Assembly (NCBI GenBank): GCA_964016885.1
Contig: OZ024743.1
Span: forward strand, 318,680,001 to 318,744,000
Length of the DNA stretch: 64,000 nt
Direction: 5' to 3'
DNA from: Eledone cirrhosa
Taxonomy: Eukaryota
Part shown: positions 3,596 to 64,000 of the stretch, piece by piece
Position numbering within the stretch: the stretch's first letter is position 1
Layout of the letters: every line of letters begins with the position of its first letter
Translations under genes and position numbers: made by a program
Notes under the pieces: model-generated
Databases searched by the model: none
Seen by the model: the letters and a program-made list of their open reading frames with translations, nothing else
What the model was told of the DNA's origin: nothing

Positions 3596-4273
3596 ACATA
3601 CCTCAGCTACATAAGCGCACAGTTTAGTTTATCTAATTTAAAGAAATCTGAAAAAATGGCTTTTATAGAGATACTATCACAGAACTTTACCTTTTTTAGA
3701 ATAATCAATTCTGTGATGATTTTATAGTAAAACCACACTCAAAAGAACAAAAAACAAGAGCAAAAATTAATAAAAAAAACACACACACAGACTGATAGCA
3801 GCTGTTCTCAGTCATTGGTTATTAATAACAATAAATAATGAATTATTATTGATTATCTTCAAATCTGCATATCTTATAAGTAACAGCTCCACAGACTAAG
3901 ATAGGCTGGACAAAAACCATGTAATCATTGTCATGTTTCAATTTGTCCCATGCAAATAGGAACAATATTATTAATTTATATAATTATATATAATTAGATA
4001 AATCTCTGCAATGGGATTAATGTATTATTTTCAGTATTATAGAAAGCATACTATTGTTTTTCTTTCTTAAACAGAACCGCATGCAAACTTGTTATGACAA
4101 TCCTTTCATATTTAAATATTTAAAAAAATATTTAAAAATATATTTTAGCTTTAATACATGCAATGAAAATTATATTTTATTTATATCGGAAATGATTGTC
4201 TATGGTAAGGCATGCCATGCTTAAATCTCAATACAGAAGTCAGAATGCAAAACTAAAGATGTATAAGTAGTAC

Positions 4274-4335
4274 CATTGGGAAACTGTTCCATGTAAGCAC
4301 AACGAGATACATCATCCACTGGTTGATAGGGACAT
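4274..4335 (-). CDS. Exon: C-terminal half of EGF-like motif (K)CPYQPVDDVSRCAYMEQFPN
   Basis: Acceptor ttgcag, phase 2 start matching the upstream exon, supplies Cys5 and Arg-Cys6; donor G|gtacta, or read-through to TAA at 4221. Confidence 0.6.
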
Positions 4336-5729
4336 CTGCAATATTGGGTGAAGTACCAAATCATAAGTATCCTATTTCTTAGCACTGTAACCATTTACAG
4401 AACAACAGTTCTTTCATTCCATTTCTATTCAAACCTATAGTTTCTTTGATATTTAACTACATTTATACAGTGATTGGCTATTATAGCAGCATATCACAAA
4501 CAAGGAATTTTTTATTTTATATGATGAATGCAGACAATTTTTAATGTATAACATAGATATGCTTAGACGTACTAATAATTAGAATTTATTTATTTTGTAG
4601 GTGGTAACAAGCTAACATTTTCATGACCTTAATTTCATCGCAATCACACATCATTTACTTTTTTTTTTAAAAGGTGTCCTAAATCTGAAATATCTTGAAA
4701 TATAAGGTAGAGATTTAAACTTTTGTTTTGTTTTGTTTGTCTTAATTTATACTCGTTTTCACTTCTTTATTTCTCATTTGCATTGTATCGACTTTCCCAA
4801 AACAATCATAACCACATATTTCACAATGCTTCATATAAACTATACTACTTTTTTTTGTGGCTATGTCTGCCCAATAGCAAAGCTAGGAATTATCTTAAAT
4901 TTCCCTGCAACATTAACCTCTTTGTTTGCATATTCTTAATGAAATACACTGCTCCTAATTTTCAAATCATTTTGAAAATAATTTGGAGAGAATTAGAAAT
5001 ATAATTAATTTACTTATTATTTATCTAGTGTTTGAATATAACAAAGTCTTACATAAAATTATTGTGGGAAGTTTTTAGATGAATATAAGCACATTGAAAT
5101 AAATAGTTTTGTATCTTGGATCTAGGATCAGTTTCAGGCAAGTTGGTATCCAAAGGACTAATGCTATCATATATCAGTTGATAAATCAAACTGCCTAAAA
5201 CTGCTTCTTATTCTATGATACAAAGTTGTTTATTTTAAAGAATTTATATTTATCTAAAACAACTTTGTATCATAATTTTATGTTAGTACCTTTTTTAAGT
5301 GACATTCCAAACAACAACTCAATAATGAGAATGTTATTTACATTACTAAATGTCTCCAAATTCTGGATTATTTTGAAAATGATTTGAAAATTATTTGCGG
5401 TGACTATCAATGCAATTATGGTAACAAATGGGTTAAACACGTTTGAAAACCACAAGCAGTGTTTCTCATTAGAAATATGGTATCAAAATTGGTAAATCAG
5501 GTAACAGATCACACCTATCATCCAAAGTATCTAAGTATTAATTTGTGGGACAAACTATTCCTGTATTGTTCAGAAAACATTACAAGCTGATTAAAGTAAC
5601 TTTTTGAGTATTAGTCTAAAATGGAAAGAGAAAGAACAAGAAAAAAAAAAAAGAGAATTACGCAATGAAAGAAAGTGAGAGAGGGAGGGAGAGATTCTAA
5701 ACCCCAGTCTGAGTGGTGATTCGGCTGTG

Positions 5730-5905
5730 CCCTTCAGACAGAATGATGAAGGCATTGCCACAGAGAATGATCAGCAATACCCGCTGCAACAGCCACCCCA
5801 CCTCACAGAGCTTCTTCCTCAGGCAGGATGCTGTTTTCCAATTTTGTGGAGGAATTCGGCAGTGCAGGGATCAAGGACACCAGAGGGTTTGATGGCAACT
5901 AGTAC
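5730..5905 (-). mobile_element. CRE-like non-LTR retrotransposon fragment (restriction-like endonuclease C-terminus)
   Basis: VAIKPSGVLDPCTAEFLHKIGK, frameshift, EVGWLLQRVLLIILCGNAFIIL. Confidence 0.65.
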
Positions 5906-7359
5906 AAATATAGAAATATAATATCTTTCAATTTTAAATTCTGATTGTATTTTAAAATTAAGTGTTGGGGTTAATGTGTTGACCCTCTGTTAGCTCCGAT
6001 AATAAATGTTCCAGTTGTTTTAACAATGGAACAACTGGCTCATGAAATTATTGCGCATGTGGTTGAGTATTCCACAGACACATGTGCTGTTAGTGCACTT
6101 GGAGTATTCAGCATGGCACAGTACAGCTCATTTTTTTACAAGTACAACTCATTTTTTTCAGCTGATTATACTAGAGCAACATGAAATAAAGTGTCTTGTT
6201 GAAGGACACAATGCCCAATCAAGAAGCAAACTCACAACCAAGAGATCATGAGACAAATACCTTAACCACTAAGCCTCATACCTTCATGAAATCAAGTGTA
6301 AATACAAAGTCAGATGATCCATATGATATATATAGCCAATCCTTTGTTTTGAGCCCTCGTTTAGTGCCATATGCAGACCCAACCAGACGAGTGGTGGTGG
6401 TGGGGGATAGGGGGTCATTTGGCATCATTTTAAGGGTGGTTTACTCATTCGAGGTTCTGATACTTAACAATATATGAAGGATCCTTCGTTCTAAGATTTC
6501 TTTATAAGACATCTCCCAAAATAACAGAGATAGGAATGTCTAACAGGTTTTAGTTCTATCAGTCAGCAAGTTTACCTAATAAACTAGTGGGTTTGTTTCA
6601 TCAATTAATTAACTGAGGATTTTATTAAAATTAGTTGAAATTTGAGAGCTAGTGTGAACGGATGTTCTCAAAGTGTAGTTTGTGACTGGAAAACCCTCTG
6701 CTGATTCTGTCTCTAAGATAACACAATTAATTTGTTTCTTTTAATGATCCAATCTTGCTATTCAAATTCTTTGTGGGATAGAATTTATTTATATTTTATG
6801 GCTTAGTAATTAGGGAATTGAATTCACAATCATGAGGTTGTGTTATGTCCTTGAGCAAGACACTTTATTTCATATTGCTCCAGTTCATTCAGCTGGCAAA
6901 AATGAGATGTACTACTTCTACTTCAAAGGTGCATGGCTCAGTAGTTAGGGAATTGGATTTGCAATCATGTGGTTGTGAATTCGATTCCTGGGCTGGGTGA
7001 TGCATTATGTCCTTGAGTAAGACAGTTTATTTTCTATTGCTCTTTCTGCTAGGAGTTGCAACAGATAGATAGTATCAGCAATTGGAAAGACTAATGGAAA
7101 CATTGTTTCCTCAGTTCAACCTGTTAACTCGGTAAGTGAATGAAGTCTGGGGTCTTGTCTGGAGATTTTATCTTATCAACTTTAGCAGTACATTGGTTGT
7201 ACTTGAAGTTTCAGTTGAGTTATCTGTTTGTTAATCTTCCAGATACACAAACTATTCTATTCCTGCAATCTTTAATGGTTACTGACTACAGAATTTTCCC
7301 CTAATTTATAGATTAAGCAATTACTGCCTCTCCTCACCTTGCTGAGGACATAACAACCT

Positions 7360-7790
7360 TTCTAGTGCTGGTAACACGATAGTATCCACCCAGTACACTC
7401 AATTAAGTGATAGTGCTAGTACCAGTGTAAAATGCTCCTAATATACCCTGTAAAGTGGTAGTGCAGGAGCTATGATAAAGTGTATCCAGTACACTCTGTA
7501 AAGTGACAGTGTTGGTGCCATGATAAAATGTACTCAGTACACTATGTAAAGTGGTCGTGCAGGTGCCACAATAAAATGCATCCAGTACACTCTGTAAATT
7601 GGTAGTGTTGGTGCCATGATAAAATGCACCCAATACACTTTGTAAAGTGGTTGGTGTTGGGAAGGTAGTCCAGCTGTAGAAACCATGCCAAAGTATGAAG
7701 AAGATTTGTTTTATTAACCCAACTAATCTCAAAGTGCAACAACCTGTCCAACCCCTGCCCAGGAAATGGATGATTAACCGATGATGAATA
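7360..7790 (+). repeat. About 42-bp tandem array derived from a SINE/RTE 3' unit, ending in an RTE-type tail
   Basis: About 7 copies of GTGCTGGTGCCATGATAAAATGCACCCAGTACACTCTGTAAAGTGG-like unit. Confidence 0.75.
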
Positions 7791-9190
7791 CCATCTCATT
7801 TCATGTTAGCAGTTTTATTTGTGAGACAGTTCATTATAGTTGGCTGTACCCCATTATGCATATATACAATTATAAAAATACGTAACTATAAAATGTACTC
7901 AGTACCCTCTGTAAAGTGGTTGGGGCTAGGAAGAGCATCTAGCTATAGAAACTGTGCCAAAAAAGGGTTGAGAGGACTCTTCAGTTGTCAAGGACATAGC
8001 AATCTTCTTAGTACTGGTACCACCATAAATTGCATCCCGTACATTTCTCTAAAGTGGTTGGTGTTATGAAGGGTGTCTAGCCATACAACTTATGCCAAAC
8101 AAAGGATTGAAAGAACCTTTTAGTTGTGTTAAGGACATGGCAATATTTCTTGTGCTAGTACCATGATTAGGTGAACTCAGTATATTCTGTAAAGTGGTTG
8201 GCATCAAGTTTTAGAAATCATACTAAAATTGGAATGTATGTAAACAAAAGGTATCCTTCATCCCAGCTGATCTAATTATTGATTATTTCATTATTAAGGT
8301 ACGTTAACAAAAGATTCTTATCTCAAATTATATTGGAAAATCTTAATTTAAATAAGGAGGCTTTAAAACAGATGGTTTCATTTCATAGAGCTAGAGGTAT
8401 TTTTGAGCAGGTTGATAGCAAAAGGGTTATTGAAATATTACTTTTTCATTAACCTTTTTGACACTAAACTGCCTGAAACTATCCATGGTTCTATGATACA
8501 AAACTGTTTATTTTTAAGTGTTTATATTTATCTAAACAACAGCCACCATAATTTTATGTAAGAACTTTTAAGTTATGTTCTAAATACCAGCTTAATATTG
8601 AGAAGGTTACTTATATTATTAAATCCCTCCAATTTATTGATTATATTATTAAATACCTCTAAGTTCAAGATTACTTGAAAATCATAGACATCTTAGAAAT
8701 ATATTAATGAAAGGGTTATAACTGTGTCGAAAATTTTAAATTTAAATAGCTCTTGAAAATGGCTGGTTTTATTCCATAGAACCAGATGTAGTTTTGGTTG
8801 GGTTTGTAATGAAAATTGTTATAAAAATATTACTTTTTCATTAAACTTTCATTGCTTCTATATACACAATATAATGATTAAAGCTGAAGTTACATGGCCA
8901 CCAAATCTACTATAAATGTCTCCTGTCTATATTTCTGGTTTTATCAGAATTATGGACACCAATATTGTTAAAAATTACTAAATTTTATATATACTAAAAT
9001 TACTATAATTATGAATACACTAAAAAGTTACTATAATCATATATACTATAGTCATATATAAAAACAATATTTTTTCTGTGAAGAACTTGATATATATAAT
9101 CCACATCATCATCATGTCATATTTGTATAAAAACAATGTTTATTTTTTTACTTTTAAGACTTTTCAGGATCTATATTGTTATGAATAAGT

Positions 9191-9379
9191 TCCGCTGCTG
9201 AACTGAATAAAATTCGGAAATACCAGGACTTATCAAACAATTATTTTTTCCAGCCTGTGGCGTGCGAGATGTTCGGTGGAGTTGGGCCACTGACAGCAAA
9301 GTTCTTGTTTCACTGGCGATTCACCTTACTGAGGTGTCAGGTGATGCCTGTGAGGGTGCCTAGTTATTTCACCGCCTTC
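9191..9379 (+). mobile_element. CRE-like non-LTR retrotransposon fragment
   Basis: SAAELNKIRKYQDLSNNYFFQPVACEMFGGVGPLTAKFL, frameshift, EVSGDACEGA*LFHRL. Confidence 0.65.
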
Positions 9380-9930
9380 AAATCATCATCATCATCAAAT
9401 AACCTCTATTTTTATATGCTTGCATGTGTTAGACAGTTGTCATGTTATGTGACAAGTCAGGTCTGTAGACCCTGTCATGCTCATATGGATCTGTATTTTG
9501 GCCTAGTGTCTATGGCTGCATGCCCTTCCTAATATCAACAATGCTAAGAAAAAAATTATAAAAGTACTAAGGAGAAAGCTATTTAGAAATAATACTTCTA
9601 CTCTGTCTGTAAAACCTTAATGTTTGAAGATAATAGCAACTAATATAATAGAATAAGTAAAATATCAGTTGTGACATCACTGGTGCCAAACTGTATCAGC
9701 CTTGGATGACATCGATTAGCATGGAGTGGGGAGACCGGTATGCATGGGTAACTCCTGGTCTTCCACAAACAAATAGCCCTATCTAGATCGCTTTATTTAG
9801 ATATATGAGAATAGAGATAATGTCAATGGTGCAAGCAATAACATCTCTGCATTATTATTAAGTTTTTCATTAGTTTGTAGTCGATACACAATAAATATCT
9901 TTTAGGTGTAAATGAAACTTCATTTTTTTC

Positions 9931-9968
<38 letters not shown>

Positions 9969-10647
9969 GTATATGATTGATGATTGAGAAAAAAGAGATG
10001 ACCCTGTGACAAACAGGCAAACCTCTAGAGTAACAACATGCACTAATTAGCCTTAATAAAATGAATATGTATGTATATACGTGTATGTGTGCGAGTGTAT
10101 ATAATTTCTGAATATATTTATGAAATATTCCTCTATAGAGGAGGATTACACAAGAATTTAAGCAGGCATACTGCTGTAGAAATAAATAATGATGATATTG
10201 ATGATGATGATGGTAATGATAGCTATATGCAACTATTAAAATTGTAAATACAAAAAGTGAATTTCTATTTTAGTTCAGAATAAAATGAAACAGGTATTTC
10301 TTGGTTAACAAGATATACCTGTTAGCAATGAACTTATTCATTGCTATAGCCTCATGAATTTCCTTTGATCATAAACATACATTTTCATAATACATACACA
10401 TGCACATACACACATGTATGTATGTATGTATGTATGTATGTATGTATGTATGTATGTATGTATGTATGTATGTACACACATACATAAATAATACTTGCAA
10501 TATTTATTACAAGATTTAAAAATAACTTCTAATGTTTTAAAGAATAATTGTAAGAACTATTATATATATATATATATATATATATTGATAAGAATTATAA
10601 TATACACTTTATATTGATTTTAGAGGGGAAATACTTTTCATACTTAC

Positions 10648-10741
10648 TTGCAATATTTCTCATCTAAGGGAGGTAACCGGTACCAGCATTCACCTTGGTT
10701 TAGGCAATAATGTTGGTCGTCACACTGTTTTTCTGAAGGAG
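10648..10741 (-). CDS. Exon: N-terminal part of EGF-like motif PSEKQCDDQHYCLNQGECWYRLPPLDEKYC(K)
   Basis: Acceptor ttttattttcttcag, donor gtaagta, 94 nt, phase 1 to phase 2, YCLNxGxC signature with four Cys. Confidence 0.85.
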
Positions 10742-20061: not shown

Positions 20062-22745
20062 CATCATCATCATCATCATCATCACCGTTTTACGTCCGTT
20101 CTTCCATGCTAGCATGGGTTAGACGGGTTGTCCTGTTGTGGGCAGTGTCCGGTCGGCTAACCTTGTCTTGCTCATATGGGAACTGATTCTGGCTTGATTT
20201 CTACAGCTGGATGCCCTTCCTAACACCAACCTCATTTACAGTGAGTGCTGGGTGCTTTTTTCCCGTGGTGCCTATACATCCACATTACATTGTGGGCTTC
20301 GGGCTTTTTGCCGTGGCACCTACACGACCACTTTGCAGTGGGAGGGGGTGGGGGCATATTGTCTATATGCTTCAGCTTCAGCTTGTACCTGTGGGAAGTC
20401 GGGTCTTCTGTATTAGTGTGTGAAGTCACGGTCATGTGTCATCCCCTTTGAGAGGTGCAATTGGGTAAGGTCGGCTTTTATCACCTCATCCCAGATCTTC
20501 TTGGGTCTCCCCACTCCACGGCTTCCATCGACTTATAGTACTCTGCACCTTTTTATGCATCTGTCATCCTTCATATGCATCACATGTCCATACCAACGCA
20601 ACCTTCTCTTCTACACACAGCAATTGATTCCTCTTATGCTCAGTCTCTCTCTCAATTCATTTATGCTTTCTGTTCACGTATATTACTATTACACACCCAT
20701 CGGAGCATGCAGGCTTCATTTCTTTCTAATCTACGCAAGTCTTCTACAGACAGCGCCCAGGTCTCACTACCATGTAACATTGCTGTTCGTATGCACGCAT
20801 CATACAGTCTGCCTTTCATTTTGAGGGAAAAGTCTTTTGCAACTAGCAGTGGCAGTAGCTCCCTGAACTTCTTCCATCCCGTTATTACCCTAGTTATTGT
20901 ACTTTCTGAACACCCACCTCTGCTGCAAATTCGGTCACCTAGGTAGCAGAAGCTGTCTACTGTTTCTACAGAGCCCTCCCAGAGTTTGGTGGTGCTTGTT
21001 TCCTGTGGCCGTTTGCTGCTTGCTGTCTCAGCGCAGCTGCTACATGTGAAGCCTACATTCTTAGTTCAGCTATCTCTTGTGTACACATTGTTTGCATTTG
21101 GGGCAGAGGATGGAGTTCCTACCTACACCTTTCCTAAATAGAGCAAGGCCATTTCCCTGAGGGGATCTAGGTTCTGTTTTCTCGTCTACTTACAAGGACC
21201 TTAGTCTTTGTCAGGTTGACTTTGAGACCCTTTCTTTCTAGTCCCTGCTTCCATGTTTGGAATTTCTTCTCTAGTTCTACCATAGATTCAGCTATAAGTG
21301 CAAGGTCATCCGCATGCAGGAGTTTCCATGGGCATCCGGTCTTAAACTCCTCCGTTATTGCCTGCAAAACTATGATGAACAGGAGAGGGCTAAGAACAGA
21401 TCCCTGGTGGACACCGACCTGTATGTTTAATTCCTTGCTATAGTCATTGTTAATCCTAACTTTGCTGACTGCTCCTCTATACATGGCTTGTACAGCTTTC
21501 ACAAGCCATTCATCTACATTCATCTACCTTCTAAGAGCCCACCAGATTATAGCACGGGGGACTCTGTCAAAGGCTTTCTCCAGATTGACGAAGCCAGGTA
21601 GAGCGGCTTACTTTTAGCTCAGTACTTTTTCTGTAACTGCCTCACAAGGAAGAGGGCATCAGTGGTGCCTTTTCCTAGCACAAACCCAAATTGCATCTCA
21701 TCTAGTTTCACCTGGTCCCTAATCAACTGTGCTATAACTCTTTCTGTTACTTTCATGACCTGGTCCATCAGCTTTATAACTCTATAGTTTCTTCTATCTA
21801 GTGCATCACCTTTACCCTTGTAGCAGTTGACAATGATGCTGCTGCACCAATCCTTTGGTATGAGACCTTCTAGTATTACCTGGTTAACAATGCATGTGGT
21901 TATGGCGTGACCTACCGACTCAGATACCTTCAGCATCTCGGCAGCTATACTCGATGGACCGGTTGCCTTTCCCGTCTTCATATCTTTCATTACCTTACTT
22001 ACTACGCTGCTGCTGACCCCTCTAAAGGGTTTATTTGGGGTAGGGGCTCTTTTTCTTATGCATTCTCCTCATTTAGTAATCTATCATAATGGCTCTTCCA
22101 CGCATCTTTCTTCTCAGCACTTGTGAGGGCAAGCTCACCTTTATCATTCCGGATACACTTCTCTCCAATGACATCACAATTCTCTCTGACACACTGCCTC
22201 ATCTACCTTATTGTTCCACTACCAAGTCACTCTCCTCCTGTCTGTGGTCTTGCTCCAACCACAAATCTCGTTCGTTGCTTTTAGTAAGTTATTTTTTAGG
22301 AACTCCCTGTGCTTTTCTACATTGAATGTCTCTATCTGTTCTTCTTTACTGTCATAGACGTCAAGTAAGATATCTTTAAACCTGTTACTGGCTGAGGGGT
22401 CTTCCAGATCTTTCTTCTCCAGGTTGCCTTCTGTTTCCAAGTAACTCTAGTTCTGACAATGAGGTCATTGACAACTAAGTTATGTTGGGAGGTACATTCC
22501 TCACTAAGGAAGGCTTTTGTGTTTACGACCATCCATCTATCTCTGATAAGGATAAAATCTATCTGACTAGAATGCTCCCCTGATCTATAGGTGATCAGAT
22601 GGTTGTCGGGTTTTTTAAAGTTTGTGTTACATATCGACATGTCATTGGAGTCACAGAATTCTAGAAGCCTGAAGCCTTTTTCATTTATTGTGCCAAACCC
22701 GTGGCCTTCATGGACTCTATAGAAGCCGTCATGGTGTTTACCTAT
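20062..22745 (-). mobile_element. RTE LINE, about 2.7 kb, decayed ORF (end of APE endonuclease, RT, PHD-like finger, C-terminus, 3'UTR)
   Basis: SQIDFILIR; YKGKGDALDRRNYR; QFGFV..KGTTDALF; GVHQGSVLSPLLF; HADD in place of YADD; stops and frameshifts; (ATG)n tail. Confidence 0.95.
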
Positions 22746-24289
22746 GATATATATATATATTTATATATAATAAGGGCTTAGATTGCCATCCAGTTATTTT
22801 GATCTTGTTTACAATTTGCTCAACAAATTCATTTGGAGCACATGCACATATGTGTATGTATATATATATATATATGCATACATACATTTTAAGTTTCTGA
22901 ATGAGACCTAAAATACTTGTAGGTTTTTGTGAAAAGTCTACTTAAACCAATTCAGAATATATTGAATGACAAATCAACAATTTGTGAGAATATTCTGAAT
23001 TAGATAGTATTAAAATGTGCAAAGAAAGTATATAACTTAATGTATTTAATATATCTTCTTGTAAGGTACAGGTATGGTTGTGTGATTAAGGAAGTCACTT
23101 CGCTTTACGTATTTTCAAGTTCACTTAAAAAAAATTTTATTGTTTAAGTCCCAGAACAGCGGTTTGATAAAAAAAAAGAGAAGAAAAAAAAACAGCATTG
23201 ATAAAATAAGTACCTGCCTTTAAAAAAATAAGTACTGGCTTCAAAATAGTGTGGTATGGTGGTATGGTCCCGTAACTCCTGATGGAGTCGTAGGGGCGTC
23301 AAAGTGACATACAGTGTTTCTTGGGTTTTTTAAGCCTGGCAGAGCCCATCTTCTCTCCATGCCTGAACATAGCAAATTTCTTCCAAAGAAGTAGAGAGAG
23401 AGTGAGAGAAAGGAAGTGAGAAAGAAATATAGAGGAAGAATTTACACCAGTATTAAACTGGTACATTTTTATTGACCACGAAAGAATGAAAGGCAAAGTT
23501 AACCTAGTTTGAACTTAGAGAGCATAGAGCCGGAATGAATACCCCAAAGCACTCTATCTGATGTTCTAATGGCTTTGCTAATTTGCCACCTTATTAGTGT
23601 CAATATGATCAACTAAAATTCCATTAACTTGGTGCCCCAGCATGACCACAGTCTAATGACTGAAACCAGTAAAAGAATAACAGAATAAGAATCACATAAT
23701 TTCCATCAAAGAAGCTGATGAAGCAGTTGGTCAAACGAGAGAAATAAACAGATCTGAACTGCTTCATATTTGTAGCTGTTGTTAGAGCAACAAACATATG
23801 TTCTAGTTGAAAATATCTATTGTGTACATGATACTATCACTGATCAGTATGTGGAAGTTAGTTCGCCTGAATCTCTACAAATGGTGTCTGTTGTATAACC
23901 ACACACAACTAGATGGTAAATTGTTCTCACATTTCAGACCACCTCTGGGAATCTAGATATTTTCTTGTAAACTGAATGATTTTAATTTCTCAGTCTTTTC
24001 ACAACAAATACTACAATGTGTGTATTTAAAAATATAAATGAAAAGGTGTGGTTTTATATTTTTAAATGTCTTGACTGCATTTAGTGAGAAGGTAAAGAAA
24101 AAATACAACTTCACACTCTCGTATGTTTGTTATGCATAAATATATTGTATATACTTTCATATACAGACCTATAATGAACAGACCTACCTTTCACCAGTAA
24201 AATTCACACTATATGCAAATGAGCATCACCAGCTGATGTTTCATATGCAAAAACCATATAGGTTTTAGCTTATTCTGTCTCAGTAGTGA

Positions 24290-32294: not shown

Positions 32295-32700
32295 ACAGCC
32301 AGTACACTCTGTAAAGTGGTAGCATTGGTGCCATGATAAAACGTACCCAGTACACTCTGAAAATTGATAGTGCTGGTGCCACAATGAAATAAACCCAATA
32401 CATTTTGTAAAGTGGTAGTACTGATGCTACAATAAAATAAACCCAGTACACTCTGTAAAGTAATGCTGGTGCCACAGTAAAATGCATCTAGTACACTCTG
32501 TAAAATAGTAGTGCTGGTGCCAAGATAAAATGCACCCAGTATACTCTGCATATAAGTTGGCATTAAGAAGGGCATTCAGCCGTATACATTATGCCAAAAA
32601 ATTGGATTGTATGAGCTAGACATAGTTATTTGACCTTGTCCTGTCTCAGATCATGACAACCTGTTTAACATAAATCAGCATGGAAATGGATGTAAAAATG
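32295..32700 (+). repeat. About 42-bp tandem array with RTE-type tail
   Basis: Same unit as 7360-7790. Confidence 0.75.
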
Positions 32701-44308: not shown

Positions 44309-45739
44309 TCATCATCATCATCATCATCACCGTTTTACGTCCGTTCTTCCACACTAGCATGGGTTAGACGGGTTGTCCTGTTGTGGGCAGTGTCTGGTCG
44401 GCTGACCATGCCTTGCTCATATAAGAACTGATTTGGCTTGATTTCTACAGCTGGATGACCTTCCTAACACCAACCTCATTTACAGTGAGTGCTGGGTGCT
44501 TTTTCGTGGCCGCTACACGTCCACTTTACAGTGTGGGCTGGGTGCTTTTTTGCCGTGGCACCTCCACGACCACCTTGCAGAGGGAGGGTGTGGGGGCATA
44601 TTGTCTATATGCTTCAGCTTGTACCCATGGGAGGTCGGGTACTCTGTATTACTGCGTGACGCCAGAGGTCACGGTCGTGTGTCATCACCTTTGAGAGGTG
44701 TAATTGGGTAAGGTCGGCTTTTATCACCTCATCCCAGGTCATCTTGGGTCTCCCCACTCCGCGGTTTCCATCGACTTCTAGTGCTCTGCACCTTTTTATG
44801 CAGCTGTCATCCTTCACACGCATCACATGTCCATACCAACGCAACCGCCTCTCCTGCACACAGCATTTAATTCCTCTTATGCTCAGTCTCTCTCTCAATT
44901 CATTTATGCTTTGTCATTCGCATATATTACTATTACACATCCATCGGAGCATGCTGGCTTCGTTTCTTTCTAATCTATGTAAGTCTTCCACCTTCAGCGC
45001 CCAGGTCTCACTACCATGTAACATTGCTGTTCGGATACACGCATCATACAGTCTGCATTTCATTTTGAGGGAGAAGCCTTTTGCAGCTAGCAGTGTTAGT
45101 AGTTCCCTGAACTTCTTCCATCCCGTTCTTACCCTAGTTATTGTATTTTCTGAACACCCACCTCCGCTGCTATTGAGCACAGCATCTCTCCACTTCTCAC
45201 GGTCCTTCGTCATCTCCACCGTGAGCTTCAGTGATCTGAGGTCTGTTCTCACCACCTCCACCCATGTTTTTCGTGGTCTACCTCTACCACGTCTTCCTTC
45301 AACTGGCATTTCCTGGCACTCCCTCATGCATCGGTCATCCTCCATGCGCATCACATGTCCATACCACCACCGTCTCCTCTCTCACACACTTCATTCTATC
45401 CCTCTCAGACAGTTTCTCTCTCAACACATTCATGCTGGGTCGTTCACGCACATTGACCCTGCACATCCAACGGAGCATGCTTGCCTCATTTCTCTCCAGC
45501 CATTGCATATCCTCTGCAGTTGCTGCCCATGTCTCACTACCATGCAGCATCGCGCTCCTGACACAGGCATCATATAACCGGCCTTTCGTACACAGGGAGA
45601 AACCCTTCTTCGTCAGCAGATCCATCAGTTTTATACCCCTATAATTGCTCCTCTCCAGAGCATCCCCTTTACCTTTGCAGCAATTTATAAGAATACTGCT
45701 GCACCAGTCTTTGGGTATGACACCACCATATATAGCCTG

Positions 45740-45740
<1 letters not shown>
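44309..45740 (-). mobile_element. Mosaic of RTE fragments
   Basis: Subfamily A 3' 860 bp abutting a different RTE C-terminus (GRGRPRKTWVEVVRTD) and an N-terminal RT piece (KGKGDALERSNYRGIKL). Confidence 0.9.
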
Positions 45741-45785
<45 letters not shown>

Positions 45786-46129
45786 CATGCTAGCGTGGAA
45801 GATAGACGTTGAATGACAATGATGATGATGATATATATATATATTAGTGTGTGTGTGTATATATGTGTGCATGTATTTATATTGGGCATCCAGCAGTAGA
45901 AACCAAGCCAGAAACAGTTCTGTATGAGCAAGACATGATCATCTGATCTGACTTGTCTTACAATGGGACAACTCGTCTAACCCATGCTAGTGTAGAAAAA
46001 TGGACACTAAACAGTGATGAGGAAGATGATGATGATATATATATATGTATTCATACATACATGCATATCATCATCATCATCGTTTAACGTCCAAAAAAAT
46101 ATGTTGGTACATGTATGTGGTCATATTTA

Positions 46130-51445: not shown

Positions 51446-51829
51446 TCATTTAATATAATTTAATCCTGGTTATTTTTATTCATATATATATATATATATG
51501 AATATTCCCCACTTATCTTACTGGAGCCGAGTAAGATAAGTGGGGAAAGTGCACTTAAAATGAAGGTGGTCAGATTTTTTTCATTCAACAACTGTATGTA
51601 TTATTTGACAATTCAAATTACATGTACCAAACTAACTATGAAATGTAAAGTTGGGGGTTTGTTTATATATTCTAAGTTTTTGTGTATGAAAACCTGAAGT
51701 GCCCCAAGCTGTAATTCTGGCCCTGAGGGTAGTAGGTGTTTCAAATGTAAAAGCTATATAAATTTTGCCTTCTGTTTTCCATACTCTAGTTTTCTTATTA
51801 AAAAAGTATTAACTGGATTCTTTTTATCA

Positions 51830-52175
51830 TGACACCAGGACAACTATTTTACAGAGAGGACTGAATGCATTTTATAGTAAAATTAGCACTACCACTTTAC
51901 AGAGTGTACTGGGTGCATTTATCATGACACCAGCACACCACTTTACAGAGTACACTAGGTGTATTTTATCATTACATCAGCCCTACCACTTTACAGAGTG
52001 CACCGAGTGCATTTTATCATGACACCAGCACACCACTTTACAGAGTGCACCAGGTGTATTTTATCATGACACCAGCACTACCACTTTATAGAGTGTATTG
52101 AGTACATTTTAACGTGACATAAGCAGTACCACTAAACAGAGTATACTGGGTGCATTTTATCATGGCACTGGCATC
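51830..52175 (-). repeat. About 42-bp tandem array
   Basis: Reverse of the 7360 unit, about 8 copies. Confidence 0.75.
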
Positions 52176-63468: not shown

Positions 63469-63524
63469 AATATGGTTTTATAAATATAGTTTCCATTTAT
63501 TTAATATCGTATATATATATACGA

Positions 63525-64000
63525 TATGCTGATGACCTCGCACTCATAGCTGAATCTATGGTAGAACTAGAGAATAAATTCCAAACCTGGAAGCAGGGAC
63601 TAGAGAGAAAGGGCCTCAAAGTCAACATGACAAAGACTAAGGTCCTTATAAGTAGACGAGAAAACAGAACCCAGATCCCCTCAGGGAAATGGCCTTGCTC
63701 AGTATGTAGGAAAGGTGTAGGTAGGAACTCCATTCTTTGCCCCAAATGCAAACAATGGGTACACAAGAGATGTAGCGGGATCTCAGGAAGCTTAATTAAG
63801 AATGTAGGATTCACATGCAGCAGCTGTGCTGAAACAGCAAGCAAACAGCCACAGGAAACAAGTACCACCAATCTCTGGGAGGGCCCTGTAGAAACAGTAG
63901 ACAGCTTCTGCTACCTAGGTGACCGAATTAGCAACGGAGGTGGGTGCTCAGAAAGTACAATAACTAGGGTAAGAACGGGATGGAAGAAGTTTAGGGAACT
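63525..64000 (+). mobile_element. Young RTE LINE fragment, open frame from YADD to the window end
   Basis: YADDLALIAES...KVNMTKTK...WPCSVCRKGVGRNSILCPKCKQWVHKRCSG...FTCSSC...DSFCYLGD. Confidence 0.95.

Follow-up and report, generated by a model that had tools for sequence, protein, structure and literature searches.

We analysed a 64,000-nucleotide (nt) window of the Eledone cirrhosa genome (assembly GCA_964016885.1, contig OZ024743.1, positions 318,680,001 to 318,744,000) and found on its minus strand a common epidermal growth factor (EGF) exon of a neuregulin-type gene, which we call exon A. This exon encodes the EGF module up to Cys4, and a 62-nt candidate further downstream, exon B, could encode a last loop from Cys5 to Cys6. 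In an original prediction, made from the DNA letters, A and B had been spliced into a divergent ErbB ligand. Our preferred reading, to which we give a probability of about 55%, is that this is a known neuregulin-type gene in which exon B is a relic or a minor internal exon, a degenerate second loop exon. The main product is likely canonical, because octopod and cuttlefish records use a loop with eight residues between Cys5 and Cys6 (x8) and this gap is 8 in nearly all homologous modules (72/73). In the main transcript, exon A would probably be joined to a canonical loop exon that lies beyond the window. As annotation the gene is routine; the orthologous ligand has already been named in other octopuses. 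The features are listed below in window positions, with Ig for immunoglobulin domain and TM for transmembrane segment.

10648 to 10741, minus strand: exon A, common EGF exon of a neuregulin-type Ig-EGF-TM gene (ortholog identity and splice geometry)
10644 to 10647, minus strand: exon A donor; unspliced, it gives Lys and then a stop (four-cysteine, gamma-like end)
4336 to 10647, minus strand: intronic stretch from A to B, 6312 nt, containing satellite and microsatellite repeats but no canonical Cys5-Cys6 exon
4274 to 4335, minus strand: candidate exon B, likely a degenerate alternative Cys5-Cys6 exon (phases, Cys-Pro and Arg-Cys; moderate acceptor, weak donor)
4221 to 4273, minus strand: read-through of exon B to a stop, where GC falls to 28%, as in an intron
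4176 to 4181, minus strand: AATAAA hexamer, possible poly(A) signal, 40 nt after the read-through stop

Exon A and the gene to which it belongs

Exon A (94 nt, 10741-10648) is entered in phase 1 and left in phase 2. Its acceptor has 15 pyrimidines in 19 positions and its donor agrees with the consensus at 8/9 positions (the donor scores of both exons are matches to a 9-base consensus), and it contains Cys1 to Cys4 of the EGF module plus one residue, Lys. The coordinates, phases and translations originally given for both exons, together with the read-through stop of exon B, were confirmed. When the exon A frame was used as a protein query, all three candidates were octopod proteins (E values 1e-15 to 1e-13, Octopus 1e-15), and the matched clusters comprised seven records, two of which were named pro-neuregulin-2, from O. 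vulgaris, O. sinensis, O. bimaculoides and Argonauta. The exon A segment was identical at 29/31 residues to O. vulgaris CAI9720502.1 and O. bimaculoides XP_014769147.1 and at 28/31 residues to Argonauta GAB1599754.1, and in these pro-neuregulin-2-like proteins (28-29/31 overall), among them XP_036357500.1, the segment ends at the same Cys4-Lys. By its sequence, exon A is real, far beyond chance.

Pfam gave no family for exon A alone or exon B alone, the PDB sequences gave two matches to exon A alone, both by chance, and the JGI metagenome scans confirmed none of 536 pattern matches for the exon A frame and none of 211 for the exon B frame. The share of 31 sequence words of exon A and its flanks found in sequencing runs was 0.97-1.00 in three runs of one label, 0.26 in another run of that label and 0.10 in 20 runs of five other labels, and it was not used as evidence.

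The strong donor lies immediately after Cys4-Lys, at 10648/10647, and the orthologs go on with Cys5. An intron between Cys4 and Cys5 is a mark of these ligands and has been reported for vein (PMC1618406), so the splice site that had been named as an ErbB-ligand trait is present, as is, in the A-B product, the second such trait, an Arg before Cys6, which occurs in 68/74 homologous loops. The predicted four-cysteine, gamma-like end is a by-product of the exon A donor sequence; the Sepia pharaonis gene model CAE1296430.1 terminates at the same Lys as unspliced exon A.

The octopod proteins of this type consist of an N-terminal domain, an Ig domain, an EGF module and a membrane anchor. Ig families scored above the Pfam cut-off in P0003 and P0004 (two full-length octopod records) and in the cuttlefish-cluster protein P0091, while EGF in the orthologs stayed below it (E 0.0055 and 0.0012). 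NRG2_N was weak in octopod P0003 (E 0.069) and present in 5/6 of the non-cephalopod proteins scanned. The orthologs have a single EGF module, followed by a hydrophobic segment about 20 residues past Cys6 (judged by eye), which is not the architecture of a multi-EGF structural protein, the case that had been put forward as evidence against a ligand. Sequence matches of the O. bimaculoides protein in the PDB were ErbB ligands or ligand domains in 14/14 cases (epiregulin, EGF, epigen, NRG1), and this bears out the earlier view of exon A as part of a split EGF module of an ErbB-ligand-type gene.

By its orthologs, the gene belongs to the NRG-type ligands, the class of Barberan et al. 2016, which includes Drosophila Vein (PMC4914847). 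Like the cephalopod orthologs, Vein has an Ig domain and one EGF module; however, it is secreted, whereas the cephalopod gene has membrane-anchored forms. Unlike vertebrate NRG1 and NRG2, the cephalopod orthologs have no intracellular Neuregulin domain of Pfam (P0002-P0004 at E 0.1, P0091 at E 0.01). We therefore do not place the gene in a specific vertebrate paralog group, and 'pro-neuregulin-2', as NCBI calls it, is a label given by similarity. A full HMMER search found 79 relatives. Of the gastropod and bivalve proteins checked, 6/7 have one cytoplasmic motif in common with the cephalopod proteins and 4/7 have another, which supports orthology between the cephalopod and the gastropod and bivalve genes.

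Exon A was the sole match when three orthologs were compared with the window by tBLASTn, and its 64 kb yielded no Ig exon, canonical loop exon or membrane exon; nor did any of the six frames contain an aromatic-x-Gly loop. Because tBLASTn finds only exon A, we infer that these exons lie outside the window and that the gene is longer than 64 kb. The original prediction had likewise named no signal-peptide, Ig or TM exon, and this is explained by their position outside the window. NRG-type precursors are cleaved, which frees an EGF-bearing part that binds the receptor (PMC4914847). By analogy with other neuregulin-type ligands, the gene would encode a precursor anchored in the membrane, and its Ig-EGF part, once shed, would activate the EGFR of the animal. 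In a report on octopus arm regeneration, neuregulin is cited only as a vertebrate parallel in the text available (PMC10550383).

Exon B and the canonical loop

Exon B (4335-4274, 62 nt) begins 6312 nt after exon A and would be entered in phase 2 and left in phase 1. Its acceptor is moderate (11/19 pyrimidines) and its donor, as first described, is weak (4/9); among the exon's four phase-1 GT positions that follow the first two bases, it scores best, without ties. The encoded loop starts with Cys-Pro, has ten residues between Cys5 and Cys6 and keeps an Arg before Cys6, and in either register it has no aromatic residue at Cys6-5 and no Gly at Cys6-3. The GC content is 43.5% in exon B and 42.6% in exon A, compared with 34% upstream of B and 28% in the read-through, which ends in a stop codon at 4223-4221. 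The AATAAA that follows 40 nt later is of a hexamer with a frequency of 0.13 per 100 nt on the minus strand. No repeat in the window has exon B as one of its copies. Three other acceptors for a Cys5-Cys6 exon (5898, 3801 and 1687) were rejected, being without Arg-Cys.

The spacing of the A-B product had been called unusual, and this holds for one half of it. The x5-x5-x11 part is found in 12/73 distinct homologous modules (x5-x5 in 41/73), but the Cys5-Cys6 gap is 8 in 72/73 modules, 9 in 1/73 and 10 in 0/73. The lack of the GY/FxG motif was also rightly noted: aromatic and Gly are present in 74/74 homologous loops and Arg before Cys6 in 68 of them, a count that its search pattern limits to x8 loops. 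Gly39 and Arg41 have been used as a mark of the EGF fold (PMC8851504), and much of the affinity of EGF comes from Arg41 and Leu47 (PMC4282322). Because two of the three tested features fail in exon B (the x8 gap, and aromatic plus Gly) and only the Arg is kept, the A-B product should not be filed as a canonical ligand loop. Cys-Pro, which exon B shares, starts 17/28 lophotrochozoan loops.

The canonical x8 loop with aromatic-x-Gly-x-Arg was present in 7/7 octopod records, none of which carries exon B, and in all four cuttlefish-cluster records that pass Cys4, among the 15 of 20 members listed. So the claim of a divergent ligand built from A and B is likely wrong.

To see how often such an exon arises by chance, 600 stretches of 10.6 kb were simulated under each of two Markov backgrounds and searched for a loose pattern, which was an acceptor followed by Cys and 6-12 residues ending in Arg-Cys. 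The loose pattern appeared in 30/600 and 33/600 simulated stretches. With Pro after the Cys it appeared in 1/600 under each model, with a phase-1 donor in 6/600 and 4/600, and with both in 0/600 under each model. Among the occurrences of the loose pattern in the window, only exon B has both the Pro and the donor.

Taken together, phases that fit a swap, the Cys-Pro start, Arg-Cys, exon-like GC and rarity in simulation suggest a former or minor exon, and the paired exons in related genes described below raise the odds. The A-to-B junction is hypothetical. Exon B would descend from a duplicated loop exon that lost the Gly and the aromatic residue, gained two residues and would now be rarely spliced. 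Its inclusion would replace the C-terminal loop that contacts the receptor by one that has neither the conserved Gly nor the aromatic residue and give a weak or inactive form, which would be membrane-bound if the weak donor is used or anchor-less by read-through. A spliced exon B, if confirmed, would take an ErbB ligand beyond the loop spacings of the 73 modules examined and would test directly what degree of drift the C-terminal loop allows.

Paired loop exons and alternative readings of exon B

Invertebrate loop pairs are visible in public annotations. Comparison of ten invertebrate species or clusters showed a loop swap with identical flanks in five, which are Gigantopelta aegis, Patella vulgata, P. 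caerulea, Haliotis asinina and the nemertean Tubulanus polymorphus; the paired loops were read from annotated isoform proteins. The pairs include Gigantopelta XP_041364522/3, Patella XP_050391906/7, Haliotis XP_067673077/8 and Tubulanus XP_074648028/9. The difference between the two records of a pair is confined to the part from Cys5 to the membrane-proximal segment, and on either side of it they are identical; no swap was found in Babylonia, Lingula, the cuttlefish cluster and two Octopus species. In the annelid Lamellibrachia, the gene model has two loops in tandem. These lophotrochozoan genes share with the cephalopod orthologs the layout of N-terminal domain, Ig, EGF and membrane segment as well as x5-x5, and their swap starts exactly at Cys5. 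The last swapped residue in the gastropod pairs is Glu/Lys or Gly/Arg, and judging from this junction residue the gastropod swap would end in a phase-1 split codon, as would exon B. However, both lophotrochozoan alternatives keep x8, aromatic, Gly and Arg, whereas in exon B nothing but the Cys-Pro and Arg-Cys anchors remains.

Vertebrate NRG1 and NRG2 are built in a similar way, with one common EGF exon and a choice of C-terminal exons after it (alpha, beta and gamma), a likeness of layout that does not imply homology of the vertebrate and invertebrate exon pairs. The vertebrate alpha and beta loops among the matches keep x8 and Gly, unlike exon B. In vertebrates the choice of loop exon adjusts potency: NRG2-alpha is a weak binder that antagonises NRG2-beta (PMC11060329). 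Human NRG1 occurs with alpha, beta or gamma ends and also in forms without an anchor (PMC11360300). At Cys6+4/+5, which corresponds to EGF Leu47, Asp followed by an aliphatic residue is found in just one member of the invertebrate pair in three of four genera, so the two kinds may form a strong and a weak member, by analogy with vertebrate beta and alpha. Two closer assignments of exon B were tried and rejected: as an ortholog of the Argonauta loop, which it equals in length past Cys6, it was unsupported (p 0.51), and it could not be called alpha-like or beta-like by an aliphatic Cys6+5, which marks one member of 3/4 genus pairs but is mixed in cephalopods. No published statement of paired loop exons in invertebrate neuregulins was found in the literature searched, which covers few subscription journals, and the main texts of PMC4914847 and PMC12963305 contain no splicing terms (for PMC4914847: splicing, isoform, exon). 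If the swaps are confirmed, several lophotrochozoan neuregulin genes exchange the same loop as vertebrate alpha and beta, which suggests that the switch predates vertebrates.

Several points weigh against reading exon B as a degenerate loop exon. The loose pattern occurs four times in the 128 kb of strand of the real window (two of the four being near-identical copies), three times besides exon B, which is about 0.3 per 10.6 kb, and the simulation figures flatter exon B because the loop-length range and the donor window were chosen knowing it. With the anchors fixed, exon B was unlike all 20 homologous loops (best p 0.035, uncorrected), and 14.5% of 62-nt intron windows are as GC-rich. No protein record contains exon B in octopod, cephalopod and wider protein searches, which are weak for a minor exon of 20 residues. 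The cephalopod isoform sets compared show the loop swap in 0/3 cases, and a tree of 22 Ig-EGF segments was unresolved and did not place the cephalopods with gastropods (long branch, weak support). Lastly, the canonical loop exon of E. cirrhosa is itself inferred and was not seen.

The strongest competitor, which we consider possible though doubtful, is that exon B is chance intronic sequence, that a single canonical loop exon lies downstream and that nothing at 4335-4221 is used. Chance would account for the weak donor and the only moderate acceptor, for a loop length that no homologous module has and no similarity beyond the anchors, and for the recurrence of the loose pattern in the real window. 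It is also in keeping with exon B having no counterpart in protein or metagenome collections; the ESM Atlas search with exon B gave a best score of 0.80, which is uninformative. But Cys-Pro and Arg-Cys combined with a phase-2 acceptor and a phase-1 donor were absent from the simulated stretches of both models and from the rest of the 128 kb of strand, GC steps down at the predicted donor, and related genes have a second exon at the equivalent position.

At the other end, exon B could be a live regulated exon that provides octopods with a neuregulin form whose lengthened, Gly-less receptor-contact loop acts as a built-in weak agonist or antagonist, within an alpha/beta switch inherited from the bilaterian ancestor, as the gastropod, nemertean and annelid pairs suggest; we regard this as unlikely.

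It is improbable that exon B works as a terminal exon that is read through as far as 4221 and cleaved close to the AATAAA at 4181, giving a secreted decoy or weak ligand like the vertebrate type-3 anchor-less neuregulins. The weak donor, the open read-through and the nearby AATAAA would fit, and anchor-less forms are known in the cuttlefish cluster and in human NRG1 (PMC11360300). However, the fall of GC to intron level right at the donor suits an internal exon better than a terminal one, AATAAA is frequent on this strand, and no such protein was found among candidates of 30-359 or 73-2000 residues in searches that are weak. A short-protein search with the EGF-TM region of the ortholog gave 0/15 candidates, and it too was weak, since it also missed the known 315-residue cuttlefish protein. 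The anchor-less isoform proposed originally thus has a parallel in the cuttlefish-cluster forms that have no membrane segment, although those use the canonical loop.

Least credible of all is the original model, in which exon B is the only loop exon of the species and the ligand itself has diverged: it is the sole Cys-Pro and Arg-Cys candidate with fitting phases in the 10.6 kb past exon A, but the 29/31 identity of exon A to Octopus points to a module under strong constraint, the homologous loops keep aromatic, Gly and a gap of 8 as counted above, and octopods on both sides (Octopus and Argonauta) and cuttlefish have the canonical loop.

Further observations on the cephalopod proteins and the window

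The cuttlefish-cluster proteins comprise a membrane-bearing form of 663 residues (P0091) and forms of 315-337 residues that have no membrane segment (P0009, P0093 and P0096). The anchor-less records stop 18 residues past Cys6 and keep the canonical loop, and the long and short forms therefore point to a secreted isoform made through a different downstream exon. Among Octopus isoforms (P0005, P0006 and P0008 compared with P0003 and P0007), the cytoplasmic tail varies by an insert of 22 residues, and there are two alternative N-termini, one of which is without the signal peptide and the N-terminal domain.

The predicted structure of P0009 (mean pLDDT 71, pTM 0.40) gave Ig and agrin-NtA-like matches and no EGF-ligand match among the matches listed, and it is uninformative on the EGF module. 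Residues of about 35-160 matched the laminin-binding NtA domain of agrin with a TM-score of 0.66-0.69 by target length. This likeness apparently comes from the N-terminal domain, where NRG2_N of Pfam falls in relatives, and the domain may be a matrix-binding module.

Upstream of exon A, in what is presumed to be an intron, a broken LINE-like (long interspersed nuclear element) reverse-transcriptase element lies at 20661-22760 on the minus strand, and RVT_1 of Pfam matches its part at 21170-21523 (E 2e-14). No Pfam match was obtained for fragments that look similar near 44914-45976 and 63497-63910. A satellite family with a 48-nt unit occurs at 7390-7651, 32299-32548 and 51822-52168, and the first of these arrays lies between exons A and B.

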